IMG/VR virus record: IMGVR_UViG_2919425241_000002 | Location: 1 to 64,000 of that record | Origin: a virus | Lineage: Duplodnaviria; Caudoviricetes | Length of the DNA stretch: 64,000 nt | Direction: 5' to 3' (one strand) | Shown here: positions 1 to 62,268 of the stretch, one piece after another | Layout of the letters: each line of letters starts with the position of its first letter | How positions within the stretch are numbered: position 1 is the first letter of the stretch | Program-made: the position numbers and the translations under genes | Notes under the pieces: generated by a model | Database searches by the model: none | What the model saw: only the letters and a program-made list of their open reading frames with translations | What the model was told of the DNA's origin: nothing

Positions 1-492
1 ATGCTGTTTTTGACACATAAGGTTTTTGTTAGTTATCATCATGCCAATGACCAGACTAAAGCTGATTACTTGCGTTCGTATTACGGATCTAATAACACGC
101 TAATTGATCGATCATTGCCTTCTGAGCTTGACAGTGACGATAACGAGTACATCTTAGGACAAATTCGGACGAGGCATCTAAAAGACTCAACTGTCACAAT
201 AGTACTCATTGGTAGCGAAACACACGCAAGAAAATGGGTAGACTGGGAGATTTACTCATCACTTCGTTCTCATGGAGCACGCTCACGAAATGGCCTGTTA
301 GGTATATATTTGCCTACTGCTGGTGCAACACCGGCTCGGCTACAAGATAATATTGATTCAGGATATGCCATTACAATGACTTGGAGCAACATCTCCTTTC
401 AACTGGAGTCCAAAATTGAACAAGCATTTAATAACAGAGAAAAAGTTGAACTTGTTGAAAATTGGCGCCTTAGGAGGATAAGGAATAGCTGA
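1..492 (+). CDS. ThsB-like TIR-domain protein (MTH538/DUF1863 type); true start may be TTG at 10
   Basis: KVFVSYHH, STVTIVLIG, RKWVDWEI (catalytic Glu) and NGLLGIYLP motifs typical of Thoeris ThsB-type TIRs. Confidence 0.85.
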   Translation: MLFLTHKVFVSYHHANDQTKADYLRSYYGSNNTLIDRSLPSELDSDDNEYILGQIRTRHLKDSTVTIVLIGSETHARKWVDWEIYSSLRSHGARSRNGLLGIYLPTAGATPARLQDNIDSGYAITMTWSNISFQLESKIEQAFNNREKVELVENWRLRRIRNS

Positions 493-1175
493 TGGCACGA
501 AGACCTTATTTAAAGAAAAGGAGACATTCCCTCAAAGTGTTAATTTCAGCTGTAATATTTCTGGCGTTAAGTGTCACTTTCTTTTGCGTTCATTGGACTT
601 GGACTTATAACCCAGGGAAATTCGTTATTAACGGACCATTTAATCTTGGGACTTATGAATTTGATCGAGCCACATTATCTGGCAAAGAACAAGATATAGC
701 TTGGAAATTATATGTACAACTAACAACGAGGAAAGCGGCAATGCCTTACGATGAGGAGAATGATATCATTGCTGAAGTATATGATTCCTGGTACCAGCTA
801 TTCTCTTCAACAAGAGATTACTTAATCGAGATGCCGGCCAAAGATTTAGAAGGAAACGAGAATGCACAAGCAATTGTTAAACTCTCAGTAGATGTATTAA
901 ATGACGGTTTACGTCCTCATTTAACTAAATGGCAAGGGAAATATCGGAAGTGGTATGATTCAGCGTTGCAAAAGGAAGTAAACAAAGACCTGTCGCCTCA
1001 AGAGATTCAGAGACAATACCCTCAGTATGAAGAAATAATTTCTGATATCCGCGAAGTAAATGCTGAGCTTAAAAAATACGCTTTTGAACTAAAAAGATTT
1101 TCACATGAAGAGCCACCTAGTTTTTCTACAAGAGCCGTCGGATGGGTTAAGGATATTTGGAGTAAGTCTCGATGA
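492..1175 (+). CDS. Membrane-anchored protein of unknown function; candidate TIR-signal effector
   Basis: Basic N-terminus, one hydrophobic helix (aa ~16-34), then a helical soluble domain; TGATG coupling to the TIR gene. Confidence 0.7.
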   Translation: MARRPYLKKRRHSLKVLISAVIFLALSVTFFCVHWTWTYNPGKFVINGPFNLGTYEFDRATLSGKEQDIAWKLYVQLTTRKAAMPYDEENDIIAEVYDSWYQLFSSTRDYLIEMPAKDLEGNENAQAIVKLSVDVLNDGLRPHLTKWQGKYRKWYDSALQKEVNKDLSPQEIQRQYPQYEEIISDIREVNAELKKYAFELKRFSHEEPPSFSTRAVGWVKDIWSKSR

Positions 1176-1233
1176 AGGTAGATTGAGGCACCTTATCATA
1201 AGGGGTGCCCTTTGTTATTCCATTTAAAGGAGT

Positions 1234-2115
1234 TTGTTCATGTCAATAAGTACTTTAACGAACACAATCAATAGAATTCAACGCGACATTGCTGACTTAA
1301 ATAAAAAAATAAGTGATGAAAAGAAAAAAGAAGCTTCAAATACCGGGAGAATCAATCAAATCCAAAAAAGCATTTCAAAGTCGACCCCAGTTACCTCCGT
1401 AAACAGTAAGCTTATGCAAATTGAAAGAATTCAAAGAGAAAATGCTGGAATATCTAGCAAACAGGCCGACTTACAAAAACAATTAGCTAATAAGGTTTAT
1501 GAATTAAACAAACAACAAATAAATCTAAGTAAAGAACAAGAACGTGAGCAAAGGAAACTCGCTGATCTTGAAAAAAAGCGTGAACGTGAACGATTGGAGT
1601 ACCAGCAGCGCATTACACGTGAGCTTAAGGAACAAAAGGAACTTGTACTAAGCTTAACAAATGCAGGTTCTCATTCTAAACATACTGGTTTAGCATCAAC
1701 TGAGGAGAATGAGTTATTTGACGTCTTCATTTCTCACGCTAGCGAGGATAAAGATGACTTCGTTCGCCCTCTCGCTGAGGAATTAGTAAGGATCGGGGTA
1801 AAAGTTTGGTATGATGAGTTCTCGTTAAAATGGGGAGACAGCCTGAGGGTTTCTATAGACAAGGGGCTTTCTAATTCAAAATTTGGAGTTATCGTGATTT
1901 CTTCATCCTTTATAGGTAAGAAATGGCCTGAGTATGAGGTTAATGGATTGGTAGCCAGGGAGATGGCTGGGGGTAAAGTGATCTTGCCAATATGGCACAA
2001 GGTTTCTAAATCTGAAGTAATAAAATACAGCCCCACATTAGCTGATAAACTCGCTATGAATTCATCTGTTGATGAAATAGCAGATATAGCCAAACAATTG
2101 AAATCTCTTTTGTGA
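1234..2115 (+). CDS. Coiled-coil + C-terminal TIR_2 protein (TcpB/TirS-like, probable NADase)
   Basis: ~140 aa Q/K/E heptad-rich region, then FDVFISHASEDK, VWYDEF, WPEYE, ILPIWH. Confidence 0.9.
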   Translation: MFMSISTLTNTINRIQRDIADLNKKISDEKKKEASNTGRINQIQKSISKSTPVTSVNSKLMQIERIQRENAGISSKQADLQKQLANKVYELNKQQINLSKEQEREQRKLADLEKKRERERLEYQQRITRELKEQKELVLSLTNAGSHSKHTGLASTEENELFDVFISHASEDKDDFVRPLAEELVRIGVKVWYDEFSLKWGDSLRVSIDKGLSNSKFGVIVISSSFIGKKWPEYEVNGLVAREMAGGKVILPIWHKVSKSEVIKYSPTLADKLAMNSSVDEIADIAKQLKSLL

Positions 2116-29522: not shown

Positions 29523-31217
29523 TTAACTCACCTCCTCGTCAAATAGTCCGGGAATATCGGCCATGAATGAGTATCCTATCGGCTTGAAATGCCCTTTGTG
29601 CCTGTGTTTCCGCATCTCCCAGCCAATCATGCCGCCAAGCAAGATATCATCATGGCAGCCGCTTTGATGTTGCGCCTTACCATTCCGTTTTACAAATGTC
29701 CTCATTTCCCCAAGAATCCGGCGTGACTTTGGAAAAACCTCTTTGTTCATGTACGCCTGCCGGTATTCCTCAACCAGGATCGGCCGCGTCTTCGATGTAG
29801 TTGGCCACCCTTCGCGCTTTTCCACATTGCCCTTCACGTCATAATCTTTATGAGCGTAGAGATTCGGGTAATCAAAGATTTGCATGAGTGCAAGCAGCAC
29901 AGCATGCCCATGGTTATTTCTTTCCACGCCAAGCAGAGCCGTATTGTAATAGCGGCCCCATTCATTTATGAGTTCAGCAAAGGAATAAGGTTCTTCCCAA
30001 CACTGGATTTCTGCAACCTGTTCACCTGTACTTCGTTTCCAGATCACCAACGTGGAAGCATCGTTCTCGTCCTCATCCAGACCTTCCGCCACGTCCGCGC
30101 CTGCGTCATACAGCTCACCTTCAATCGGTTCTTCAAAGATTAGGATATCTCCCTCTCTGTCTTCTCTGATTGGCTCCGGTGCATCTCGCATGTCTCCCTG
30201 AATCTGCGCCTGGTCGAACACTGATCGACCGGATACGAGGAAAGCTTCTTCGGGAAAGGAAGGGTACTCTTGCTGGAATGACTTTGCATCTCCATCGCAT
30301 TTATTCTTGATTGTAGAGCGACGCCACTTTAGCTGCTCCAGATCAAGATTAAACCGTTTCTGCAACTCCCTCTCTTCCTCAAGCATTGAATCCTCGAAAT
30401 CTTGCCTTTCCTGTTCAGAGATAAAGCTATCTCGATATGTCGGGAATTCATGCCACGCAACGAAGATCGGAACATAGTCGTTCTGGCCGGTGACTGCTTT
30501 TTCCCACATCTGCTGAAAATACTCTCCCAAACCATTAGCCGTCGATTCAATAACGCAAACGGTACCCGGAGAATCAGACAATGATTGCAACAGTGAAAGC
30601 ATATGTTTGCTTTTCCGATTCTCAGGCCAGAAGGCGAGCTCTGAGACATGCAGGTAATGAATTGTACCTGACCGCGCAAGTACCTTCGCTTCTGCAGTAT
30701 CCACTGTGATCTTTGACTTTAGCCCGGGGTTATCTTGCCGAACAGAGTCCAATGAAGTTGGGTTCTCAAATGTGAACGCTTTGGCATTGTCTTTCTTCTT
30801 CATCGGCTTGTACAGCAGCGGTACGTTGTCGTAGTACGTTTTGAACATGTCGAACAAGTTACCTGATGCCTTGGCGTCCTGCGCTACGATAAAGGCATTC
30901 TTAGCTTCCTGAAGTGATGAAAGGTAATAAATGATCGCCTCTGTCACCGTAGAGAATCCGAGCTGCCGCGCCTTGAGGATAATGAACCGAGCCGGCTTCC
31001 CTGCGGCAATAGTCTCAAGCAATTGCTTGGCGAAATCCTTCTGCGCGTCATTCAGGACAAAGGGGAGAATCTTCCCTTCTTTGGTCTTAATCTTTAGACA
31101 CTTGGCTGTAAATCGCTCGAAGTCGCCCAATAAAGCATAGGCTTTCTGTCCTTTTTCTTTGTTCTTTGCCCCAAGTGCATCGATCTTTGCTCTAATTTCC
31201 TTCGCATATTCAATCAT
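29523..31217 (-). CDS. terL: Terminase large subunit
   Basis: ILKARQLGFST Walker A, LHVSE, IESTANG, ADVAEG, VERNNHG, HDD nuclease motif. Confidence 0.95.
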   Translation of the reverse strand: MIEYAKEIRAKIDALGAKNKEKGQKAYALLGDFERFTAKCLKIKTKEGKILPFVLNDAQKDFAKQLLETIAAGKPARFIILKARQLGFSTVTEAIIYYLSSLQEAKNAFIVAQDAKASGNLFDMFKTYYDNVPLLYKPMKKKDNAKAFTFENPTSLDSVRQDNPGLKSKITVDTAEAKVLARSGTIHYLHVSELAFWPENRKSKHMLSLLQSLSDSPGTVCVIESTANGLGEYFQQMWEKAVTGQNDYVPIFVAWHEFPTYRDSFISEQERQDFEDSMLEEERELQKRFNLDLEQLKWRRSTIKNKCDGDAKSFQQEYPSFPEEAFLVSGRSVFDQAQIQGDMRDAPEPIREDREGDILIFEEPIEGELYDAGADVAEGLDEDENDASTLVIWKRSTGEQVAEIQCWEEPYSFAELINEWGRYYNTALLGVERNNHGHAVLLALMQIFDYPNLYAHKDYDVKGNVEKREGWPTTSKTRPILVEEYRQAYMNKEVFPKSRRILGEMRTFVKRNGKAQHQSGCHDDILLGGMIGWEMRKHRHKGHFKPIGYSFMADIPGLFDEEVS

Positions 31218-31756: not shown

Positions 31757-32428
31757 TCATGGAGAGAGTGCCTCGTTCATATCTGTATTTGGCTCGCCGA
31801 TCATACTTTTTACGATTTTTTCGATATTTCTACTCATTTTTACTTTATCATTGGCGGTGGTCGAGATCTTCGCTTTCATATCTCGTTCCTTCAACGATCT
31901 ATATAGAGTCGCACGGTTGACGCCTGTAAGTTCAGCGATCTCAGCGACGGTATGTTCTTGGCCATCGTAAAGCTTTAAAGCTTGTGTCAATTTGCGCGGA
32001 TCAGTCTTTGGCCGTCCGCCATTGCGTCCTCTCGCCCGAGAAGCAGCAAGGCCTGCCTTGGTCCGCTCAACGATTACGTTTCTTTCAAACTCAGCAAACA
32101 CGGCTAGAACACCAAATAAGGCTTTGCCTGCTGCAGTTGTAGTATCGAGCTTATCGCTGATGCTGACAAACTCCACACCCATCTTCTGTATTTGATCGAG
32201 CGTAGTAATGAGCTTAATCGTAGAACGAGCAAGTCGATCCAGCTTATACACCATGAACACATCCCCAGGACGCAATGCATCAATTGCTTTCTGCAGCTCG
32301 ATCCGATCGTCTTTAGCCCCGCTCGCTTTCTCCGTGTAAATCCGTTCGCATCCCGCTTTCTTCAATTCGTCGATCTGGGAGTCAAGTGATTGGTCAACAG
32401 TCGATACGCGCGCATAGCCGATTTTCAT
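31757..32428 (-). CDS. Small serine recombinase (resolvase/invertase) with C-terminal HTH
   Basis: MKIGYARVST, LDRLARS, AEFER, GGRP, IAELTGVNRATLYR; SD GGAGGCGG. Confidence 0.95.
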   Translation of the reverse strand: MKIGYARVSTVDQSLDSQIDELKKAGCERIYTEKASGAKDDRIELQKAIDALRPGDVFMVYKLDRLARSTIKLITTLDQIQKMGVEFVSISDKLDTTTAAGKALFGVLAVFAEFERNVIVERTKAGLAASRARGRNGGRPKTDPRKLTQALKLYDGQEHTVAEIAELTGVNRATLYRSLKERDMKAKISTTANDKVKMSRNIEKIVKSMIGEPNTDMNEALSP

Positions 32429-32449
32429 AATAATCCGCCTCCAGAGTTC

Positions 32450-32590
32450 TTGATACTTCGATTGTATCAAAAACACGTACCTAATGATACATTAATTTAG
32501 AGACGGACAAAGAGACGATATTATGAACGTTTCGGCCACTTAAACGCACAGGACCAAAAAAGCACTAATACGGGTGTTTTTGAGACACTG
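32450..32590. promoter_or_regulatory. Probable res site upstream of the resolvase
   Basis: TTGATAC-N7-GTATCAA (32450-32470), TGTATCA-N15-TGATACA (32463-32491), repeated GAGAC half-sites. Confidence 0.6.
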
Positions 32591-34637: not shown

Positions 34638-35096
34638 TTATTTCCGCTCGATCGGTACTTCACCAAGCAGCAATATTGCCTGCTCTCTTCTCTCATCACT
34701 GACAAATCCCGAATAACTCTTGCAGTGAATCAAGTGCGGCAGCAGCTGGCCCATATCGTCATCGTCATCAAGGATTACGAAACGCTCGACCGGCTGCTCG
34801 AGCTCATCCATAAACAATTGAATCTCTTTGCCGCGGATCTCCCAATCCAATACAGGAGTTGCACCGATAACATATTTGTCGAGGTCATACCAGGAGAAAA
34901 GTTTCTTAATTTCCTCGATCGATAATCCTTTTCGCCATACTGAGGAAAGAATAATCTTAGCACCGGTGCGCTTGATCACTTCCCGCAGATTTCGGACGGC
35001 TACTGGGCAAAATTCCTGCATCATGTGTAATCGACTGCGCACCATGTAATCTCGATGATTCATTACTCCGTCAATATCTAGAAAGATTAGCTTCAT
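34638..35096 (-). CDS. HAD-domain protein (Swiss Army Knife RNA-repair-like HAD_SAK)
   Basis: IFLDIDGVMN, ILSSVWR, RGKEI, FVILDDDDD. Confidence 0.88.
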   Translation of the reverse strand: MKLIFLDIDGVMNHRDYMVRSRLHMMQEFCPVAVRNLREVIKRTGAKIILSSVWRKGLSIEEIKKLFSWYDLDKYVIGATPVLDWEIRGKEIQLFMDELEQPVERFVILDDDDDMGQLLPHLIHCKSYSGFVSDERREQAILLLGEVPIERK

Positions 35097-36073: not shown

Positions 36074-36244
36074 ATATCGGAAATATGAAAAAAATCTTTA
36101 ATAGAAAACCAAGAGAAGGCGAGATCCCCGCGAAAATAAAAAGAGCAGGGCTTATGCACGGCCATCGGTGCTTACTTCTCTCACCAATGCAGCGGCGCTG
36201 CCTGCTTACGAATTGTTTTATTCGGGTGCTGCCTTCTTCTTGAT

Positions 36245-36310
36245 TTCCTATGATATAAATTTAACACGTTTAAAACCAAATGGCGTCGTTTTGAGAGCGG
36301 CAAAACTACT
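36245..36310 (-). promoter_or_regulatory. Putative activator-dependent late promoter
   Basis: Extended -10-like TGTTAAATT without a good -35, pointing toward terS; resembles regions downstream of ArpU/RinA-type genes. Confidence 0.4.
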
Positions 36311-36316
36311 TTCTTT

Positions 36317-36487
36317 TTACTGATAATCTTCGGCGCCAAAATTCTCTCTCAATGCCCTTTTCCTTTTCTGCTCCATGTGCAACTTCAGTAAACCTCGCCG
36401 TTCAAGTACCTCATTACGCTTGATCATGAATTTCATCCTCTGTCGTTGTGGAGTGATCGGGCCGCCGAAAGGTGTATTCCTGGTCAT
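36317..36487 (-). CDS. 56-aa basic peptide (MTRNTPFGGP...)
   Basis: TGATG coupling to the upstream peptide ORF. Confidence 0.35.
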   Translation of the reverse strand: MTRNTPFGGPITPQRQRMKFMIKRNEVLERRGLLKLHMEQKRKRALRENFGAEDYQ

Positions 36488-36570
36488 CACTTATTCCGAA
36501 TAGACTGGACCAGAGCAATGATGCTTAAGACAAGAGCTGCCGCGATTACGATCCATGTAATTGTGTTCAT
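36487..36570 (-). CDS. 27-aa membrane peptide MNTITWIVIAAALVLSIIALVQSIRNK
   Basis: GGGAGGT SD; single TM helix. Confidence 0.6.
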   Translation of the reverse strand: MNTITWIVIAAALVLSIIALVQSIRNK

Positions 36571-36652
36571 AGTAATTACCTCCCGATCTTGATTTGTAAA
36601 GCATTTATGTTAAGATTGGGTGGAGAGGTCTTTCGACCCCTCCGAGGAACCT

Positions 36653-36787
36653 CTAACGTCTGCGCCCTACGCGTCGTTTTCTGGTTCCTTTTTTCTTTTC
36701 TTCTTCCTCCTTACGACTTTTACGGTTCAATATGATCGCTGTCCAAAGTTGAACCAAAGCCGTTAGAAGCAGTACCCAATCTTTCAT
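36653..36787 (-). CDS. 44-aa type I toxin-like peptide MKDWVLLLTALVQLWTAIILNRKSRKEEEEKKKGTRKRRVGRRR
   Basis: AAGGGTGA SD; TM helix plus highly charged tail; hairpin downstream. Confidence 0.6.
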   Translation of the reverse strand: MKDWVLLLTALVQLWTAIILNRKSRKEEEEKKKGTRKRRVGRRR

Positions 36788-36930
36788 CTTCTCACCCTTT
36801 CAGGAAGCCCTAATGTTTCACTTCCTGTATTAAATATATCACTTTCTGTACAAGAAGTCAAATATTATATTTGATTTTCTGTACTTTTTTTATTACTATG
36901 GATAGATATAATACAGAAAGGGGTGTTTTT

Positions 36931-37140
36931 ATGCCATTTTCGTATAAACCCTTATTTAAACTGCTTGTTGATAAAGAGATGAAAAAAACTGATCTGCGAC
37001 AATTGGGATTCGGTCCTTCAACAATTGCTAAATTTGATAAAGGTGAAAATGTGTCTTTGGATGTCATTGATAAACTTTGTACTTTTTTTGGAGTACAACC
37101 AAATGAGATCATCGAGCACAAACCTGAAAATCAGGGCTAA
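36931..37140 (+). CDS. Cro/C1-type HTH regulator (HTH_26)
   Basis: FSYKPLFKLL...KKTDL...TIAKF.KGENVSLDVIDKLC. Confidence 0.9.
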   Translation: MPFSYKPLFKLLVDKEMKKTDLRQLGFGPSTIAKFDKGENVSLDVIDKLCTFFGVQPNEIIEHKPENQG

Positions 37141-37190
37141 TAAGAAAGAGGAGCCGCCATAATCCCACATGGTAGTTCCTCTTCTTTTTA

Positions 37191-38318
37191 TTAAAATTTC
37201 AATCCAATTGTACTTTCTAATGAATCCGCGGCTTCTTCTTGCATGTTTGGCAGCAAGTGAGAATACGTGTCTAAGGTCAGAGTAATTGTAGAGTGCCCTA
37301 GACGTTCTGAGACGACTTTAGGATGCACACCTTGCCTTAACATGATAGAAGCATGTGTATGTCTTAAATCATGGAATGTGATTGTTGGAGCTGATTCTGG
37401 TTTATAATTCTGCTGCATCGTTTTCCAAGCATGAATAACTTTAGTTGCCGTGGCCGGTGTCCCTTTGGAACTACATACAACCAAATCATTATCCTCATAC
37501 TTGATTTTTGGATTTTGCTTCTCAAGCTCGTTCTTTTGTCTTTGCTCTTCGAGAATAGAGATGATTTGTTGAGAGATCGCGATTGTGCGCCGGCTCTTCT
37601 CAGTCTTCAATCCGGTAAATATGGTCATGTTCTTCACCAAATTACGCCGCACTTGAATAATTCCTTTTTCCATGTCTATATCTGACCACCGAAGCGCAAG
37701 GATCTCCCCCTGCCGCATTCCCGTCATAACAGCCAAATAAGCGGCGATCCAGTAACGGCTCTCGTTCTTTGTTGCTTGGAAAAACTCTCTAACCGTATCG
37801 ATGTCCCAAACTGCTCGTTCTTTCCTTTTGACAGTTGGCTTCTCTATTTTATTGGCAGCGTTCTTCGAGATAAGGTCTTTCCTCTCCGCGGCATTTAGTG
37901 AGGCATTCACGGTAGCGAAGATCCGCTTTACCATTTCATCGCCTAATTCTTTTTCGCGAATTGATGCAATGAGTTGCTCCATGTGTGTTGCATTGATCTT
38001 CGACAAAGGAATGTCTCCGAGAACAGGATTAATGTGCGTTCTAAAGTATGACTCATACATTTTCCTGGTTGAGTGTGCAATATTGGCCCGACCAGATAAC
38101 CACTGCTCAAAATAAGAACCAAAACTCATCTTGTTTGGTTCTATGTACTCCCCTTTACTGAGCTCCGTTATAATTGCGGCCCGCGCTTTTTTCGCTTCTG
38201 TAATAGTCTTGAACCCCCTGCGCGTGACACGCTTGCCGTTAACCATAACCTGAAACCAATAGGGATTACTTTTCGCATTCTCATTAAACTTAATTGTCTT
38301 GTCCGAAGATGCTGCCAT
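37191..38318 (-). CDS. int: Tyrosine integrase (ICEBs1/phage type, with arm-binding, SAM-like and catalytic domains)
   Basis: RRGFKT, TGMRQGEILAL, FHDLRHTHA, SERLGHS, LDTYSH; GGAGG SD before ATG 38318. Confidence 0.95.
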   Translation of the reverse strand: MAASSDKTIKFNENAKSNPYWFQVMVNGKRVTRRGFKTITEAKKARAAIITELSKGEYIEPNKMSFGSYFEQWLSGRANIAHSTRKMYESYFRTHINPVLGDIPLSKINATHMEQLIASIREKELGDEMVKRIFATVNASLNAAERKDLISKNAANKIEKPTVKRKERAVWDIDTVREFFQATKNESRYWIAAYLAVMTGMRQGEILALRWSDIDMEKGIIQVRRNLVKNMTIFTGLKTEKSRRTIAISQQIISILEEQRQKNELEKQNPKIKYEDNDLVVCSSKGTPATATKVIHAWKTMQQNYKPESAPTITFHDLRHTHASIMLRQGVHPKVVSERLGHSTITLTLDTYSHLLPNMQEEAADSLESTIGLKF

Positions 38319-38339
38319 GATTGATCCTCCATTGATATT

Positions 38340-38450
38340 TATCTGATGCAACCAATTATAAACCAATTGCATCAAATTTGCATCAACTAATAACAAAGCA
38401 TTGATATATCTGGGTTTTCTTCAATGGTTTCCACACATCCATGGGCAGCG
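38340..38450. other. Putative att junction of the tyrosine-integrase element
   Basis: Direct repeats at 11-bp spacing (AACCAATT x2, TTGCATCAA x2, 38350-38386) resembling arm-type sites; abrupt switch to gerE sequence at ~38443. Confidence 0.55.
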
Positions 38451-38587
38451 ACCACAAAAACAAATTTCTACTTACAAACCGCGAACGCGAAGTATTCGAA
38501 CTATTAGTGCAGGACAAAACGACGAAGGATATCGCACAGCAGCTTTTCATCAGTGAGAAAACTGTGAGAAATCATATTTCCAATGTA
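38441..38587 (+). pseudogene. gerE: gerE 5' fragment (49 codons), interrupted sporulation regulator
   Basis: LLTNREREVFELLVQDKTTKDIAQQLFISEKTVRNHISNV matches GerE; the expected MQKL.VKGRSQAVVEL is replaced by unrelated sequence; no SD upstream. Confidence 0.93.
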
Positions 38588-38625
38588 ACGTATTATCAAG
38601 TCATAACAAATAAAAAGAGGCTAGC
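38570..38625. other. Putative att junction of the serine-recombinase element inside gerE
   Basis: gerE similarity ends at AATGTAA (~38588), 38 nt from the recombinase stop codon. Confidence 0.7.
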
Positions 38626-40218
38626 TTATAGCTGCCCCAATACAGTATATACATCCGCTTCGCCTTCTTCAGATATCTCAATACGATCAATAAGCTTGGA
38701 TAAGGTGATCCTGGTAAACTCTACATCATCATAAGTACCCCGAGCTGTAATCTGACTAAGCGCCGCTTTAATGTCTTTATGAAGTTTATCCTTATCTTTT
38801 CGCTGAGCATTCTTGGCCCGGATACTACCAAGCTTCTGTTCAGCATCAGCAATTTCTAATTCATATTGCTGTTTCTCAAATTCATACTGGTTGTCATTCA
38901 TCTCTTGGAGCATATGCTGCTTCCTGATTCCAAAAAGAAGCATCCGATTATCTGCGATCGTCTTTTCCAGTCGTTTGATATCCTTCTCGAAATCATTAAC
39001 TGAGTTTCCGTATTCGGATGTATCAGTTATACCACCTGCGAAAGAACCGAAGTTCACCGCTCTGTTCATCCGCTCGACTACCCCATTAATAAGCTCGTCT
39101 CTAAACTCTTCATAAGGAACCCAAGATTTATTTACACAACCACTAGCACCTTGCCGGCGTCTTTTGCTGCATACCAGATAAGTATACTTCCTAGCTCCCG
39201 GTCTCGGGGATCCGGACATTGCTACGATTGCCGATCCGCAGCACTTACAGAAGATCATCTTAGCGAATGCATTAACAAATTTGCGCTGCCCTCCCCGAGC
39301 TCCGCCTCCACGAACCAAGCGTATACGTTGTGCTTCTTGGAAAGCCTCTGCTGGGATTATTGCTTCATGTGTTTGAAAGTCTGTCTTCTCCCATTTACTT
39401 TTATCGCGTAAGCTAAGGACTTTTCTTCTGTTCTGCAAATCATTAATGTCATCATAGACTTGTCTGGTTTCTAGCTTCGAGAACGTGACATAACCGGTGT
39501 ATGTTTCATTCTGTAAAATACGTTGAACTGAGCTTATTCCCCATGTGCCAGTTTTAGGGCTAGGCATGATCTCATTAATTGGGTCATTCAAAAACCCAAC
39601 AATCAACTTTTCACCCATACCTTTATTGATGTATAGATCGAAAATCAGCCTAACCACTTCAGCATGCTCAGGAACTACTTCCAGTGACTTCCTGCCTTCG
39701 GCTGTAACAATTTTCTTATAACCAAACGGTGCAATAGATCCAGTGAAGTTCCCAGACTTTGCAGACTGTCTCTTGCCACGCTTAGACGACGTGCTGATGT
39801 TCTCTGATTGCTTTTGGTTAACTGAAGAGATGATGCTGAAGATCATTTCATTGTCTTCTTTACCTGAGTCATACATGTCCTCAATTGAGATAACACGAAC
39901 ACCTAGAGCATTGACCAACATCCGTTTTAGTGAAAGAGCATCGAGAGTGTCACGGCTAAACCTGGACAGAGATGCAAAGTAAATTGTTTTGTACAATCCC
40001 TTCTTTGCATCCTCAATTAATTTGCGGACATCTTCCCTCTCAATAATGTTTGTACCGGTATCACGATCAAGGTAAACATGTTCAATCTCTACATTGTCGG
40101 ATGCCGCGTTTTCGCGGATCAATCCCTCTTGATGCTCAGGGCTATCTTTTTGGCTATCTTTAAGCGTAGAGACGCGGACATAAGCCCGCGCCTTCTCTTT
40201 GGTCAGTTTTTGTTGCAA
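38626..40218 (-). CDS. Large serine recombinase (integrase; SpoIVCA/SprA/GirC class)
   Basis: YVRVST, SLSRFSRD, APFGY, recombinase domain, Zn ribbon CKCCG...YLVC...C, coiled coil. Confidence 0.95.
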   Translation of the reverse strand: MQQKLTKEKARAYVRVSTLKDSQKDSPEHQEGLIRENAASDNVEIEHVYLDRDTGTNIIEREDVRKLIEDAKKGLYKTIYFASLSRFSRDTLDALSLKRMLVNALGVRVISIEDMYDSGKEDNEMIFSIISSVNQKQSENISTSSKRGKRQSAKSGNFTGSIAPFGYKKIVTAEGRKSLEVVPEHAEVVRLIFDLYINKGMGEKLIVGFLNDPINEIMPSPKTGTWGISSVQRILQNETYTGYVTFSKLETRQVYDDINDLQNRRKVLSLRDKSKWEKTDFQTHEAIIPAEAFQEAQRIRLVRGGGARGGQRKFVNAFAKMIFCKCCGSAIVAMSGSPRPGARKYTYLVCSKRRRQGASGCVNKSWVPYEEFRDELINGVVERMNRAVNFGSFAGGITDTSEYGNSVNDFEKDIKRLEKTIADNRMLLFGIRKQHMLQEMNDNQYEFEKQQYELEIADAEQKLGSIRAKNAQRKDKDKLHKDIKAALSQITARGTYDDVEFTRITLSKLIDRIEISEEGEADVYTVLGQL

Positions 40219-40224
40219 AATATA

Positions 40225-40416
40225 TCACACCTTTGCGTGGTTACGAATTATTTCATTGAGTCCTATTGTAAGCTTTGCGCCGTGTTTTGTTAATACAGAA
40301 CTAACATTCGTATTTACGGCCGAAGCAATAGCTTCCAAGACATCGCCTTCTACAGGAATGAAATTGATCTTTATCTTTTTCACCTGCTTGCCTTCACGTT
40401 TCCCCATAAGCATCAC
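40225..40416 (-). CDS. Small protein directly upstream of the recombinase; candidate recombination directionality factor
   Basis: Position and size only. Confidence 0.4.
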   Translation of the reverse strand: MMLMGKREGKQVKKIKINFIPVEGDVLEAIASAVNTNVSSVLTKHGAKLTIGLNEIIRNHAKV

Positions 40417-40434
40417 CCATATTATTCTATGTCG

Positions 40435-41031
40435 TTAAGGCTGTACATCTTTCTCGCTTTCCTTCTTCTCCCGCTGCTTCTTATCAGGCTCTGATTCCTT
40501 ATAAACCTCGATATCCAGCGCCAGAGCTATCTTGTAGAAGGCTTTGTTTCGGATCTTCCTATAAAACGTCGCTCCGATCGGCGGATTAAAAACATGGTTG
40601 TATACGTTATAATCTGTGATGTATTCAGCATCATCCGAGAGGTAACGACTTTCCATTAACAGCCGTTCCATCCGCGGCAGCCTCTTAACTGCGGCTTCCA
40701 ACCTCTCGCAATGCTTTTTCCTTCTGGCTGGCTCATCAACATTGAAAATTGCTATGTTAGCGGTCTGATCACTGGTGACGTTTGTCGGTGAGCTCCTCGG
40801 CATATCAGAGTATGCAGCCGTGATTGTTGCTTCCCTTGACTCAAAATCCATGTGTTTGAACATGCGATATTCAGCTAAATATCTCTCAACAGCCTCTTTT
40901 GTTAAATCCCGATCGATCTCCTTTAAGAAATCGTCACCTAAGCTTAATTGAGCCAAACAATCCAACTCCTTTTTACTGGAGCTATTCTCCGTTACATTTT
41001 TCTTCATTTCCGGCATTTTGCGTTGCATCAA
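40435..41031 (-). CDS. ArpU-family late transcriptional activator
   Basis: TKEAVERYL..YR, ITAAY, SDQTANIA, AVKRLP..ER.L...RYL, KAFYKIALAL. Confidence 0.9.
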   Translation of the reverse strand: MMQRKMPEMKKNVTENSSSKKELDCLAQLSLGDDFLKEIDRDLTKEAVERYLAEYRMFKHMDFESREATITAAYSDMPRSSPTNVTSDQTANIAIFNVDEPARRKKHCERLEAAVKRLPRMERLLMESRYLSDDAEYITDYNVYNHVFNPPIGATFYRKIRNKAFYKIALALDIEVYKESEPDKKQREKKESEKDVQP

Positions 41032-41095
41032 GGACGGACTACTGCTTGGTTTGTTTAATCACCTATCTGTGATAATATTTTTGTGGGTGATTAAA

Positions 41096-41299
41096 ATGGA
41101 TAAGAACCAAACTACTGATCGTGAATTAAATAAATTCGTCCATGAACAATTGCAAATCCTCTGTGACTTAGGAATGAGCAAATACATTGATGCTGAAGAT
41201 AAAAAATCATATGAAGCTGGTCTTGGTCTAGGACAAATGATTGGAACATTTTTGATTTTGTATGAACTGAAGAAGAAGTACGGCATTGATTACGAGTGA
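41096..41299 (+). CDS. Hypothetical cassette protein (MDKNQTT...)
   Basis: GGGTGA SD; opposite strand to the phage operon. Confidence 0.55.
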   Translation: MDKNQTTDRELNKFVHEQLQILCDLGMSKYIDAEDKKSYEAGLGLGQMIGTFLILYELKKKYGIDYE

Positions 41300-57832: not shown

Positions 57833-59374
57833 ATGTTAATGGGTTTTTTCGAAAAAATTCGAAATATATTTTCGGATGAAATTGGCTACAGGAATAATTC
57901 ATATCATACTAAAGGAGTAAGTGATAAGAAAATAATGGTGCCTAGAGATAATGACCACTTAGAGGTACTCAATATTGGTAGCAAAACAATTATCATGATT
58001 TACGGCTCTTATAGTAATGATAACAAAAGTAAATGTTGGATTGAAGGAAATTTGCAAGACGGGGAATGGGTGGATGCGGTAATTATGGAGCATACTGTAT
58101 TCCAACCAGATAAAGACCTTTGGACCCGCCCTCCCATTAAAGGTCAAATAGGAACATATAATGGGGGATGGAAAAATAATAAATTTCATGGGTATGGTGT
58201 CCTTGAGACAACCGATATTCGAGCATTGTATAGAAAATTTTACGATTTTCTTAAATTAGAACCAGGGGAAAAAACTAATCTTTTGGGGGATCACGGAAGT
58301 AATTCGGGTGCTCTTTTCCTACTTACCAAATACGAAGGAAACTTTATAGACGGAATATTTAATGGTGAAGGAAAAGCCTATTACGGTAGGAGAACATATG
58401 ATAAAGTTATTACCCAATTGTTATATGAAGGCGAATTTCAGTATGGAGTACGCAATGGGATTGGAAAAACATTTTATGACGACGGCTTAGTTCAATATGA
58501 AGGGCAATGGCTTCAAGGAAATATAGAAGGTAAAGGTGTATACAGGCTTAGAGCCGGAGATTTACTTTCGGGTAACTTTAAAAAAAATAGTTTTATTGAT
58601 AAAAAGAACAACCGTTTATTAAAAGTTATTGATTCGCCTTCAGTATCAGGTTCAGGTTGTACTATTATTTATGAGGGCGGCATAAAAGACGGAAAACGGA
58701 ATGGTCGGGGGAAAGAATACGATAACGGTCATGTAATATATGATGGATACTGGCTTAACGATAAAAGGCACGGTCATGGTAGTTCTTTCAGAGTTATTGA
58801 TTATTATGATAAAGCAAGGTCAGTGAAAGAATATTGTGGGGAATGGGTAGAAGATAAAAAAAGCGGTGTTGGAACATCTTTTTTTGAGGATGGGAATATA
58901 GCATATCAAGGGCAATGGCAAAATGATTCCTTTCATGGGTCTGGTGTCTCATATAATCCTGAGAAAGATTGGGGTTATTACGGACATAAACTTTCCTATA
59001 GTGGGGGGTACCATTACGGTCTTTATCATGGACTTGGCACCCTCTATACACGTCAAGGTAAATTTGAAGGGGAGTTTGAAAACCATAATATTGTCGAAAA
59101 TAAGGGGAAATGGATTTATTACCTCAGTCATGTAAAAGACTTTAACAAAGACAGAGGATTTGGTTTTATTCTGAAACATACTGAGTTGGTAGCTGGTAAA
59201 ACTCCTAATCTTAAGGAGGATATATTTTTTCACATTAGCGATTTTCAGGGAAATGCAGAAGAAAGGTTCTCTTTAATAAATGGGGAATCGACTCGAGTGA
59301 GGTTTGAGTTGGCATATGATAGTACAAAGGGTCCAAGAGCCGTTAGAGTTTCATTACATAAAATTAGCCAGTGA
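57833..59374 (+). CDS. MORN-repeat protein with C-terminal cold-shock (OB) domain
   Basis: Many YEGxW/FxxGxxxGxG repeats; VKDFNKDRGFGFI, DIFFHISDF, KGPRAVRV. Confidence 0.85.
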   Translation: MLMGFFEKIRNIFSDEIGYRNNSYHTKGVSDKKIMVPRDNDHLEVLNIGSKTIIMIYGSYSNDNKSKCWIEGNLQDGEWVDAVIMEHTVFQPDKDLWTRPPIKGQIGTYNGGWKNNKFHGYGVLETTDIRALYRKFYDFLKLEPGEKTNLLGDHGSNSGALFLLTKYEGNFIDGIFNGEGKAYYGRRTYDKVITQLLYEGEFQYGVRNGIGKTFYDDGLVQYEGQWLQGNIEGKGVYRLRAGDLLSGNFKKNSFIDKKNNRLLKVIDSPSVSGSGCTIIYEGGIKDGKRNGRGKEYDNGHVIYDGYWLNDKRHGHGSSFRVIDYYDKARSVKEYCGEWVEDKKSGVGTSFFEDGNIAYQGQWQNDSFHGSGVSYNPEKDWGYYGHKLSYSGGYHYGLYHGLGTLYTRQGKFEGEFENHNIVENKGKWIYYLSHVKDFNKDRGFGFILKHTELVAGKTPNLKEDIFFHISDFQGNAEERFSLINGESTRVRFELAYDSTKGPRAVRVSLHKISQ

Positions 59375-59451
59375 TATAGCAACATAGCGAAAATGTTTTT
59401 TTATAGTCCTGATTATAAAACTAACGAGGAACGTTAGTTCAATGACAAGCA

Positions 59452-59477
59452 AAACCCACCAACAAATGGTGGGTTTT
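59452..59477. terminator. Bidirectional terminator
   Basis: AAAACCCACCA-N-TGGTGGGTTTT. Confidence 0.7.
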
Positions 59478-59541
59478 GTAAATTACGTCATCAAGGAAAA
59501 CATAAAATAAAATCACTGTTCAATTAAAGCAAAATAATAGT

Positions 59542-59805
59542 TCAATAACGCATAGGAAGTAAATCGTTTATGGTTAAAACCTTTGTCATACCTTTTTGGC
59601 TACTGTTGTGGTGTTTCATAAGTATAACTAAAGCCCTGTCACACATTTCATGATCTTCCTCAAGATTGTTAAGAAATATCTGGTAACAACCACTGCAAAT
59701 TTCATTATATATTCCGCAGATATTCCCAAGTGGCAGTTGAAGAACATTTACGTTTTGAAGTACTGCCATGTTAATTGATGCATTAATCTTCTTCTCTTTG
59801 TGCAT
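59542..59805 (-). CDS. Small protein weakly reminiscent of the ImmA/IrrE N-terminus, lacking HExxH
   Basis: LPL..ICGIY, IFLNNL; AGGGG SD; LexA-like box AGAACATTCGTTTG at 59870-59883. Confidence 0.5.
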   Translation of the reverse strand: MHKEKKINASINMAVLQNVNVLQLPLGNICGIYNEICSGCYQIFLNNLEEDHEMCDRALVILMKHHNSSQKGMTKVLTINDLLPMRY

Positions 59806-59880
59806 AATTCATCCCCTGGTATGTATTTTTTTCGGCAATAAACGTATACAAGCTCCCCTTCAATATAACAGAACATTCGT

Positions 59881-60176
59881 TTGCATAAATGTCATAATCC
59901 GGTCAAAATTAGCTTCTTACAGCATTACGCGGTAAGCTTGGGTTTATCGGAGTTATGGGCATTGGTGATTATCTCGGTGATTTTCTGTGTTGGACACTTT
60001 ATGCAGGGATTAAGTGGTATAATCAGTTCAACGATATTCGGGCTATCACGGGGTATTTGTATTTCACAACAGGCAGCTTATTTATTCCGATCATCCTTCA
60101 CATTCTATACGATGCAAAAGCAATATATATAACGATAATTCTTCAAAAAGAAAAGAGGGGAAGTTGGATTGTCTAA
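59881..60176 (+). pseudogene. Frameshifted remnant of a CPBP/Abi (CAAX) intramembrane protease
   Basis: SVIFCVGHFMQG in one frame and GYLYFTTGSLFIPIILHILYD in another; N-terminus absent. Confidence 0.7.
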
Positions 60177-61161
60177 GCTTTGCTCAAAACACCGTGAAGA
60201 GCTGTTCGAGAAAATCGAGAACAACAAAATCGTGGCGTTCTGCGTGGATTGTGAGATCGACCGCATCTATAAGACAGAAGAACTGAAACACCGCGCTACT
60301 TTTCAAAGCATAAAAGGTGAAAACATTGCCATCATGAGAAAATACAAAGACAGTTTCGCTTCAGAACGCGTCAAATACCTAGCGAAGAAATTTCTACGTG
60401 TTTTGTTGTTTACTGGGTTATCATTTATTTTGATAGGCTGGTTCTTTTCATTTCTTATAAGTCTTTCACTCGCGCTTGCGGAAGGTTTATTGCATCGATT
60501 TTTCACCTTTACAGCTTCATTTGACAGTAGTTTGTTAGGTGCTGATTATTGGATATCAGCAGGCATTTATTTTTTGATTGTGTTTATTTTTTATTGGCGT
60601 CAAGATGAAACTAAAATGCTCCAACCGCAACTGATTCCCGAACCCATCCCTCCTGTTCGAGAGCAAATAGAGAATCGTGTTTTAGACGAGGCAGAAAGGC
60701 AAATTTCAGAGGTTACGAAATACAAAAAGCGGATTCTCGAAGAATACTTGCTGGTGGCTTCCGACATCCAAGAGGTAGACCAAATGGAAGGCGTGGAATT
60801 TGAGCATTTTTTAGCGGATATATTCCGACGCAAAGGGTACAATGTGCAATTAACGCCGGCCAGCGGCGACGACGGCGTGGACTTAATCATCGAGAAAGCA
60901 AGAAGAAAAATCGCCGTCCAATGCAAACGATATAGCGGGACGGTTGGCGTATCAGCCGTCCAGGAAGTGTTTGCGGGTAAATCCTTCTATGATTGCGATG
61001 AGGCTATGGTGGTCACGAACTCCACCTTAACGGCACCTGCCGTCAAGACAGCGCGGAAACTCGGCGTGACACTCTGGGACCGAAGCCGTTTGATTGATGT
61101 GCTGGCGGAAACGCAGACGTCAATCGAATGGGACGATTATCTAAAACGTTATTATGCATAA
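60169..61161 (+). CDS. Membrane-anchored Mrr-like restriction endonuclease domain protein
   Basis: CSKH...CVDC, TM helices, EFEHFL, SGDDGVDL, VQCKRY, AVQE. Confidence 0.85.
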   Translation: MSKLCSKHREELFEKIENNKIVAFCVDCEIDRIYKTEELKHRATFQSIKGENIAIMRKYKDSFASERVKYLAKKFLRVLLFTGLSFILIGWFFSFLISLSLALAEGLLHRFFTFTASFDSSLLGADYWISAGIYFLIVFIFYWRQDETKMLQPQLIPEPIPPVREQIENRVLDEAERQISEVTKYKKRILEEYLLVASDIQEVDQMEGVEFEHFLADIFRRKGYNVQLTPASGDDGVDLIIEKARRKIAVQCKRYSGTVGVSAVQEVFAGKSFYDCDEAMVVTNSTLTAPAVKTARKLGVTLWDRSRLIDVLAETQTSIEWDDYLKRYYA

Positions 61162-61263
61162 GAAAAAACAATAGACAAGTTTGGAAGAAGATGTTAATAT
61201 GTTTTCGTACCGGAAGCACCGGACAATGCGAAAGCCCGAGGGAAAGAATCCCCGGGCTTTTAT

Positions 61264-61410
61264 TTATTCTTCATCAATTAGAAGGTAGGCTTGCAATGTC
61301 GTATCAAAAATTACAACCTGTCCTGCATCGTTGTAGTCCATATCATTCACATCTAAGTGACTAAGTATCTTCTCTTTGCCGGTCTCCATGTGTCTTACAC
61401 GATACTCCAT
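61264..61410 (-). CDS. 48-aa acidic protein (MEYRVRHMETGKEKIL...)
   Basis: GGGGATG SD right after the ligase stop; terminator follows. Confidence 0.5.
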   Translation of the reverse strand: MEYRVRHMETGKEKILSHLDVNDMDYNDAGQVVIFDTTLQAYLLIDEE

Positions 61411-61422
61411 ATAATTCATCCC

Positions 61423-62268
61423 CTATACAATAAACTCCTCAAACACCGGCAAACGCATCGCCCCTGATTTATACCAATCGCGATATTTTACTTTGCAGCG
61501 TACAACCGGCTTCACATAAACATGATCCTTGCTCTCACCACTCTTAAACGACTGAAACACAGGCCACATTGATTCACGAGCAGACTGAGTGATTCCGAGC
61601 TCCATAGTGCCGATCGGCCGTATACGTTCTCCTTCCGGATATCCAAGCAACCAAGAGTATTCCTTCTTGCTGTACCCAGTTATGTAGACCTCGGCATTCT
61701 GATAATTGATTACCTTTTGCCACGACCAAGAACGCGTTCCCTTTTCATACCTCGAGTCTTTCTTCTTAATCACAATACCTTCGAGCCCATGCTGACATAC
61801 GATCTTAAAGAAATCCTTTGCACTACCTTTTATCGGTCGAACAATTCTATAATGCTCTGTCTCCTCAAGTGTCTCTTCAAGCAATTTCTTACGTTGTACT
61901 AACGGCAATCCAGTCACATCTATGCCGCGGTGGTACAAGATATCAAAAGCCATAAATACAACGGGTTTACGCCTCTTGCTGGATCTGAATCCTGCGTTCG
62001 TTGATTCAAAGTCTGCACGCCCGAGTTCATCAAGAACTACAATTTCACCATCCAATATCGTTCCCTTCGGAATTGGCGGATTGTGCAGCTCGGGGTATTT
62101 CACTGTTGCATTGGTGTTCTTTGTATATAAGTTGAGTTCATCCATATTAGAAACTATCAATCGAATGCCGTCCCACTTCAGTTCTGCTAATGTGGAAATT
62201 CCATCAAACGGTTCATTGTTTTTGGCATATTGGAGAAGCATTGGAGGAATAAACATTATCTTCATCAC
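61423..62268 (-). CDS. ATP-dependent DNA ligase (LigD-like ligase domain)
   Basis: PPMLL, ELKWDGIR, LDGEIV, AFDIL, EGIVIK, MRLPVF. Confidence 0.92.
   Translation of the reverse strand: MMKIMFIPPMLLQYAKNNEPFDGISTLAELKWDGIRLIVSNMDELNLYTKNTNATVKYPELHNPPIPKGTILDGEIVVLDELGRADFESTNAGFRSSKRRKPVVFMAFDILYHRGIDVTGLPLVQRKKLLEETLEETEHYRIVRPIKGSAKDFFKIVCQHGLEGIVIKKKDSRYEKGTRSWSWQKVINYQNAEVYITGYSKKEYSWLLGYPEGERIRPIGTMELGITQSARESMWPVFQSFKSGESKDHVYVKPVVRCKVKYRDWYKSGAMRLPVFEEFIV

Follow-up and report, generated by a model that had tools for sequence, protein, structure and literature searches.

The locus considered here belongs to a tailed virus (Duplodnaviria; Caudoviricetes) catalogued as IMG/VR record IMGVR_UViG_2919425241_000002, the first 64 kb of which (64,000 nucleotides, nt, out of 96,529 bp) form the window under analysis. 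At positions 37,191 to 40,416 of this window, a plus-strand open reading frame (ORF) whose first 49 codons correspond to the sporulation regulator GerE stands between the minus-strand genes of a tyrosine integrase and of a large serine recombinase, the latter being accompanied by a small ORF of 60 amino acids (aa). An earlier reading of the letters alone, the original prediction, had described the gerE piece between the integrase and the serine recombinase, and all the features that it listed were recovered at the positions that it had given (Table 1). It had also proposed that gerE is shared by two prophages, which are called A on the tyrosine integrase side and B on the serine recombinase side in the following. 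As to the record itself, both of its ends fall exactly on gene boundaries in the ORF map. For each of the two recombinases and for the small ORF, a single contig of 208,089 bp is on record, and NCBI is one of the sources given. The record thus has the appearance of a predicted provirus extracted from a longer sequence of a genome.

The identity of the piece as gerE can be regarded as certain from its sequence, the encoded protein being 96-100% identical to Paenibacillus GerE, with no mismatch between its 49 residues and the native proteins of relatives. Full-length GerE relatives count 73-74 residues and start with either MKGSDH or MGSDH. The view that a native MKGSDH start had been replaced in the window was not upheld, since the closest native alleles start with MGSDH behind the same CACACATCC-ATG. 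Native loci were compared in a set of 80 loci from species genomes and in 127 of the 136 genomes of the same GTDB family; these 136 genomes, which are species representatives, and a 401-genome sample of the order served for the surveys. Identity of the window to native gerE loci is confined to positions 38432-38585/6 and stops sharply on both sides. At 38432-38585, the window DNA matches without exception (100% identity) the intact gerE of a related Paenibacillus-type genome, G029, in which the native upstream region is present; the comparison was scored as 155 of 155 positions over 38432-38586, yet the alignment has an A against a C at 38586. The G029 locus serves as an empty site for both insertions.

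On the left, the break lies 9 nt upstream of the ATG, in the 5' untranslated region (UTR), and the gerE coding sequence is uncut there. The native upstream region reads, in order, CATAAACTA, a sigmaK-type -10 element preceded at 17 nt by an AC, a stretch of about 55 nt, the Shine-Dalgarno sequence GGAGGGGTGA, and finally CACACATCC-ATG. This region was inspected in 15 loci from related genomes, some of them with a gerE split by a serine recombinase element, and was near-invariant throughout, which argues that the different upstream sequence of the window is a junction and not the result of drift. More precisely, just CACACATCC-ATG is retained in the window; upstream of 38432, the native GGAGGGGTGA and CATAAACTA are replaced by sequence that runs into the integrase gene. 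The absence of a Shine-Dalgarno sequence on the 5' side, as previously noticed, was thus confirmed, and native gerE genes of relatives do not carry the upstream sequence of the window, identity to them beginning only at 38432. As a consequence, the description of gerE as a gene cut twice holds for the right cut, at codon 48, but not in the same sense for the left one, which is located in the 5' UTR and removes no codons.

The protein encoded to the left of this break has the domains of a tyrosine integrase in Pfam (Phage_integrase PF00589, 1.2e-29; Phage_int_SAM_3; Arm-DNA-bind_4 PF14657, 2.4e-5), its translation shows the R, HxxR and Y motifs (..MRQGE.., HDLRH and ..TYSH..), and its closest solved relative is the integrase of Tn1549. 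The arm-site-like repeats reported beside it proved to be real in the sense that they are conserved beside related integrases: the TTGCATCAA(A/C) doublet also occurs upstream of the integrases in loci L110, L111, L112, L160 and L161 and in the left attachment (att) site of genome G008, and locus L092 matches one of the two copies exactly.

The nature of the left junction is best illustrated by two other genomes of the family. In G008, an 82%-identical integrase with the TTGCATCAA(A/C) doublet beside it lies directly upstream of an intact 73-aa gerE, and the junction is identical to that of the window (...CAATGGTTTC/CACACATCCATGGGCAGC). The native promoter and Shine-Dalgarno sequence of G008 are found on another contig, which runs through CACACATCCATGGGCA into phage DNA. 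Since CACACATCCATGGGCA thus stands at both ends of that prophage, this 16-mer can be identified as the duplicated core; in the window, it marks the point at which identity to native loci starts, and it is the right-hand copy that lies inside the record. In the same line, G075 contains a 57%-identical integrase in the same arrangement beside gerE, where 57 kb of a single contig separate the native promoter element from the gene; the duplicated core is a 10-mer there, ACATTGAAGG, which lies across the TTG start codon of that species. The prophages at the gerE start in G008 and G075 measure about 57-59 kb. Both junctions adjoin an intact gerE, which points to an integrase lineage that by itself targets the gap between the gerE Shine-Dalgarno sequence and the start codon. 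Tyrosine-type insertions at gerE were detected in 2 of the 136 family genomes, and the order sample added none. Besides, integrases 46-58% identical to that of A are present in G096, G099, G120, G215, G280, G295 and G380 at places other than beside gerE, so that the site would be used by only a part of the lineage. In viral and metagenome contigs, an exact-pattern search for the tyrosine integrase junction found none, and the integrase relatives encoded there are all at most 57% identical and none of them is located beside gerE.

On the right, the match to native gerE ends after ...TCCAATGT, native genes reading on with CATGCAAAAG. As originally described, the piece ends with HISNV, and 38 nt separate it from the stop codon of the serine recombinase, which matches Resolvase PF00239 (1.2e-24), Recombinase PF07508 (6.9e-17) and Zn_ribbon_recom PF13408 (7.5e-9) in Pfam and an integrase family in PHROGs (2e-96). 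Homologues of this recombinase with 45-57% identity were retrieved from 14 of the 136 family genomes, and 12 of these 14 adjoin a piece of gerE, either 5' or 3'. Large serine recombinase elements hence split gerE at the same codon in about 9% of the family genomes (12/136), and no earlier report of how common such elements are in this family was found. In four of these genomes (G017, G020, G026 and G043), both gerE pieces are located on one contig, at a distance of 2.45 kb in G043 and of 34, 34 and 46 kb in the other three, and joining them restores the reading frame. The att sites of the four genomes read TCGAA/CGTCATG for attB, ..AA/TGTAATG.. on the left and ..GCGAA/CGTCATGCAAAAG on the right, which indicates that the exchange takes place at the AA of the Asn48 codon and that the phage arm imitates the next few bases. 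Measured from this crossover, the length of the phage-derived stretch up to the recombinase stop codon would fit a serine integrase half-site.

Many truncated GerE proteins in the protein database stop at HISN(V) and continue with unrelated residues, and Caldibacillus phage CBP1 (MF595878.1; L001, L192) contains a gerE 5' piece at 1041-1190 whose cut, after HISNAM, falls at the same place as in the window. The CBP1 sequence was deposited as a "complete phage genome" with a large serine recombinase at its very end, and seems to be a gerE-inserted prophage including some host flank. The truncated proteins and CBP1 show that the codon-48 site is widely used. Other observations concern smaller structures at gerE. 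In G043 (C19:208926-211605; L125, L180), the element that splits gerE at the same codon is a mini element of 2.45 kb with little space beyond the serine recombinase and a short upstream ORF, apparently an intervening element of the skin type in its most reduced form. A second, frameshifted gerE occurs in Paenibacillus tyrfis (L003:8067-8300), 2 kb downstream of the intact gene and flanking a 412-aa ORF, and two gerE matches each, 0.8-6 kb apart, were recorded in G032, G082, G084, G112 and G128.

With each junction seen separately at gerE in other genomes, the proposal of two prophages that had entered by two recombinase chemistries was substantiated. It is further supported by the gene content of the contig, which continues for 32.5 kb past the window with a second, different and complete lysis/tail/head/terminase set. 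The prophage of G008, which is bounded independently by the duplicated core and the native gerE flanks (loci L105, L106, L108 and L109), is collinear with the contig over 43.6-60 kb (early genes) and 61-95.4 kb (accessory and late genes), which assigns the early genes at 40-57 kb to the late genes on the right, that is, to B. In G008, about 450 bp lie between the homologue of the ArpU-type late-gene activator and the left att site, and this interval contains no serine recombinase. The G008 prophage combines the backbone of B (66-78% nucleotide identity, collinear) with the tyrosine integrase module of A, contig positions 35187-38586 matching the G008 phage at 73-87% identity, and in both forms the integration module is placed between the ArpU gene and the packaging genes. 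Related phages therefore appear to have exchanged integration modules while the gerE target was kept. A and B also share an 85%-identical gene of the HAD family (HAD_SAK_2; 34638-35096 and contig 95697-96158) near their integration modules, a possible homology patch for module exchange between neighbours.

Considering these junctions together, it is quite probable that two independent prophages reside in one gerE and that both would have to excise precisely to yield a functional gene. The host would be a Paenibacillus-type spore-former with a single gerE locus, of the allele seen in G029, and two temperate prophages. A would have entered through its lambda-type tyrosine integrase at the 16-bp core, which reaches from the last bases of the 5' UTR across the start codon, thereby placing the whole phage between the sigmaK-type promoter with its Shine-Dalgarno sequence and the ATG. 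B would have entered through a large serine recombinase of the GirC/SprA type at the AA of the Asn48 codon. The gene would then stand in three parts, namely the promoter with the Shine-Dalgarno sequence, codons 1-48, and codons 48-73. About 135 bp separate the end of the core (38447) from the serine crossover (38582), and, the two sites being non-overlapping, a lysogen of either phage could still be entered by the other. If B alone left, the coding sequence would remain without promoter and Shine-Dalgarno sequence, a state such as that of G008 and G075; if A alone left, the promoter would drive a 97-aa fusion of GerE residues 1-49 with unrelated residues.

As regards the excision of B, attention is drawn to the 60-aa ORF, whose stop codon overlaps the ribosome-binding site of the recombinase gene. 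A same-strand ORF ends at most about 100 nt upstream of the recombinase in 10 of the 14 homologues, and three more homologue loci show only a tblastn match to the 60-aa ORF. The alignment is weak (15-26% identity, with no Pfam or PHROG match), although the small ORFs share a faint pattern, a beta-like stretch followed by a helix ..L..II..L...T..K. Being apparently coupled in translation to the integrase, the 60-aa ORF is a candidate recombination directionality factor. Upstream of it, at a distance of 24 nt and inside the 3' end of the ArpU gene, CATAGAATA (40408-40434, minus strand) fits the -10 pattern of mother-cell sigma factors, the -35 region being a poor match. Of 8 independent loci, 5 have a similar CATA element, the background rate being 0.17 in this comparison made post hoc, and a strict search for sigmaK/sigmaE promoters in front of the small ORFs yielded this -10-like CATA but no complete promoter. 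CATAGAATA and the CATA elements are thus a weak, post hoc hint at a mother-cell promoter. By analogy with the Bacillus elements gin, SPbeta and skin, B would likely excise in the mother cell, aided by the 60-aa ORF. That A also excises during sporulation is held tentatively, with somewhat less than even confidence. Finally, it is a rather remote idea that evolution has led a lineage of tyrosine integrase phages to settle in the gap that separates the gerE start codon from its ribosome-binding site and to excise in the mother cell, making the gene a two-input AND gate in this host. If that were true, sporulation-coupled excision would not be confined to serine recombinase elements, GerE would need two mechanistically independent excisions that act as an AND gate on late coat gene expression, and the occurrence of the same backbone with either module at gerE would mean that the gene, rather than the recombinase, is favoured by selection as the landing site.

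Other readings of the locus have to be weighed. A single composite phage, with a captured gerE fragment internal to it between two integrases, had been kept as an alternative in the original prediction and finds some support within the 64-kb window, where the modules look complementary, all on the minus strand, and where the integration genes stand between an ArpU-type gene and a terminase. Yet the second complete virion set past the window, the linkage of the early genes to that set in the G008 prophage and the separate occurrence of each junction beside chromosomal gerE all speak against it. The same holds for the self-comparison of the 96.5-kb contig, which revealed no terminal overlap through which one circular phage could be closed. 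This single-phage reading was consequently rejected, with hardly any probability left to it. The expectation of second gene sets beyond the window was borne out for the late genes, but the early genes of A are not in the record. An assembly chimera is also improbable, although less so: a strain with A at the gerE start and a strain with B at codon 48 would have been joined through the shared gerE, whose common segment of 146-155 bp is about one read long, and each single-insertion state does exist in nature. Nevertheless, one 208-kb contig with NCBI among its sources is on record for each of the three proteins around the piece, no sign of a join is seen in the sequence, and, if the assembly comes from an isolate, the single-copy gerE leaves no second path.

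A different objection accepts the double lysogen as real and holds that gerE is simply knocked out, A and/or B, most likely A, staying in place during sporulation and giving GerE-less spores at a tolerated site. gerE mutants of B. subtilis still form spores, which counts for this explanation, and several further results do so too. Among the small ORFs near the integrase gene (36317-36490 and 36871-37140), no excisionase match for A was obtained in Pfam or PHROGs, one small ORF of this neighbourhood encoding a Cro/C1-type helix-turn-helix protein, and a scan of 36.2-41.2 kb (36200-41200) for sigma-70 promoters and terminators gave no more sites than expected from shuffled sequence. The record, which begins on a gene boundary, contains neither early genes nor a left att site for A, and A could be incomplete or defective. 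Against the double-prophage reading itself, the 3' gerE piece was not matched by regular expressions or tblastn across the whole 96.5-kb record; both the left att site of A, on the promoter side, and the right att site of B, with the 3' gerE piece, lie outside it, so that the three-part gerE is deduced from one side of each element. Besides, the two insertions were seen together in 0 of the 136 family genomes and 0 of the 401 order genomes, and the double state is therefore rare. The spore-former literature searched gave no experimental evidence of sporulation-linked excision by a tyrosine integrase phage, all the developmental excisions found published there being due to serine recombinases, which again counts for a knock-out. 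Nonetheless, a permanently silenced gene is judged less likely than not, given that the 49 codons are undamaged and identical to the native allele and that both integrases look intact in Pfam. In addition, the same tyrosine integrase site is used in two other species-representative genomes and hence would not be strongly counter-selected, and the 2.45-kb serine element at the same codon has the form typical of domesticated, excision-competent intervening elements.

Table 1. Features of the two presumed prophages and of the gerE piece between them (positions in the window or, beyond 64,000, in the contig).
Feature	Position	Strand	Remarks
gerE 5' piece	38441-38587	+	codons 1-49, ends HISNV; without native promoter, Shine-Dalgarno sequence and last 24 codons
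Tyrosine integrase of prophage A	ORF 37191-38396; 37191-38318 from likely true start	-	375 aa, ATG at 38318 with GGAGG
Arm-type repeats	38367-38376, 38378-38387: TTGCATCAA(A/C); 38344: inverted TGATGCAA	.	conserved beside related integrases
Tyrosine integrase att core CACACATCCATGGGCA	38432-38447	.	last 9 nt of 5' UTR and first 7 nt of gerE
Inferred crossover dinucleotide (AA of Asn48 codon)	38582-38583	.	from att sites of relatives
Phage-derived half of B's left att site	38584-38625	.	crossover to recombinase stop; divergence after 38585
Large serine recombinase of prophage B	38626-40218	-	530 aa, TTG start behind AGGTGTGA site
60-aa ORF, candidate recombination directionality factor	40225-40407 (ORF 40225-40416)	-	stop overlaps recombinase ribosome-binding site
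ArpU-type late-gene activator of B	40435-41031	-	last early-operon gene; PHROG 248, 2.8e-31
Prophage A, part in record	1-38431	-	right boundary at loss of identity to native gerE, 38431/38432
A: anti-phage and moron genes	1-2115		
A: terminase	29523-31217		
A: small serine resolvase/invertase (third recombinase)	31757-32476	-	Pfam Resolvase and HTH_7; just upstream of small terminase
Prophage B	38584-64000, on to at least 96529 of contig	-	ORF map, PHROGs, collinearity with G008
B: early genes	to 57.7 kb		
B: accessory genes	57.8-71.4 kb		
B: lysis to terminase	71.5-93.9 kb		

With respect to gene content, A proceeds from anti-phage and moron genes through lysis, contractile tail, head and terminase genes to the small resolvase, small genes and the tyrosine integrase. 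Its PHROG matches (tail sheath, head morphogenesis, protease-capsid fusion and TerL) make up a sheath-bearing, myovirus-type set. In a mirror image of B, the integrase of A is at its terminase-proximal end, and its early genes would be expected beyond the left edge of the record. Among sequenced phages, Brevibacillus phage Emery comes nearest, in which a gene annotated as "integrase" (gp1) occupies the same place as the small resolvase of A. B is laid out as att site, integrase, small ORF, ArpU gene, early genes, accessory genes, lysis-to-terminase genes, small genes and att site; its PHROG matches form an HK97-type siphovirus set, and B is a siphovirus-like phage of about 60 kb. Its accessory genes (57833-62268 and 63.5-71.4 kb) encode a MORN-repeat/cold-shock-domain protein, an Mrr-type restriction endonuclease, an ATP-dependent DNA ligase, an FtsK-like ATPase, a YolD-like protein and a SEC-C-motif protein.

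The sporulation-time excision of prophages from the mother-cell genes that they interrupt is a textbook case of phage-host co-regulation, and the spore-former examples found in the literature involve one element per gene and serine recombinases. To these, the present locus would add a tyrosine integrase route into the same small gene, one that uncouples the promoter and ribosome-binding site rather than cutting codons. Natural double occupancy would make the coordination of two independent excisions within one developmental window testable. A third addition would be evidence that closely related backbones swap integration modules yet keep the gerE target, as does the B backbone with an A module in G008, and serine recombinase elements that split gerE proved to be common in this family.

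The serine recombinase half of the locus is already known in type, from gin, SPbeta, skin and the gerE prophage of B. glycinifermentas. In the gin element of Bacillus cereus ATCC 10987, GirC and the 6.5-kDa GirX rebuild gerE in sporulating cells, cleavage being predicted at the AA of a 9-bp consensus in the 225-bp gene, and a prophage in gerE of B. glycinifermentas is mentioned in the same work (PMC5595907). Like gin, B would have brought a large serine recombinase into gerE at the His-Ile-Ser-Asn codons, with an AA crossover at the same codon, and the small GirX would have a candidate counterpart in the comparably small ORF just upstream of the integrase of B. However, gin is devoid of phage genes and is the sole element in its gene, whereas B is a phage of roughly 60 kb in a Paenibacillus-type host. 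In Bacillus subtilis, the excision of SPbeta from spsM (SprA/SprB) and of skin from sigK restores the mother-cell gene, and the prophage is retained in the spore (PMC4191935, PMC6957869). These elements and B have in common a temperate or defective phage inside a mother-cell gene, with a serine integrase and a small directionality factor (a candidate one in B), and the recombinase of the window is distantly similar to SprA (E 8e-10 to PDB 9dxh), but SPbeta and skin occupy other target genes, with one element per gene.

Multiple occupancy is documented in heterocyst-forming cyanobacteria, in which 10 of 87 interrupted genes contain several elements, up to four in one nifD, with both serine and tyrosine recombinases, and all of them are removed in the terminal cell (PMC4874684, PMC11249958). 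That case differs in phylum and programme, the elements being mostly non-phage and the interruptions lying in coding sequence instead of the gap between ribosome-binding site and start codon. In the literature, no report was found of a tyrosine integrase phage that sits just before the start codon of a spore-former sporulation gene and behind its ribosome-binding site, nor of two phages of different chemistry in one such gene. With lambda-type systems, A shares an arm-binding N-terminal domain, arm repeats beside the integrase gene and, as seen in its relatives G008 and G075, a short core duplicated at the prophage ends; it differs in that its core crosses the start codon of a sporulation regulator, by which the gene would be uncoupled from its promoter and Shine-Dalgarno sequence. 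The nearest functional analogue is SpyCIM1, an island of Streptococcus pyogenes that cuts mutL off from its promoter.

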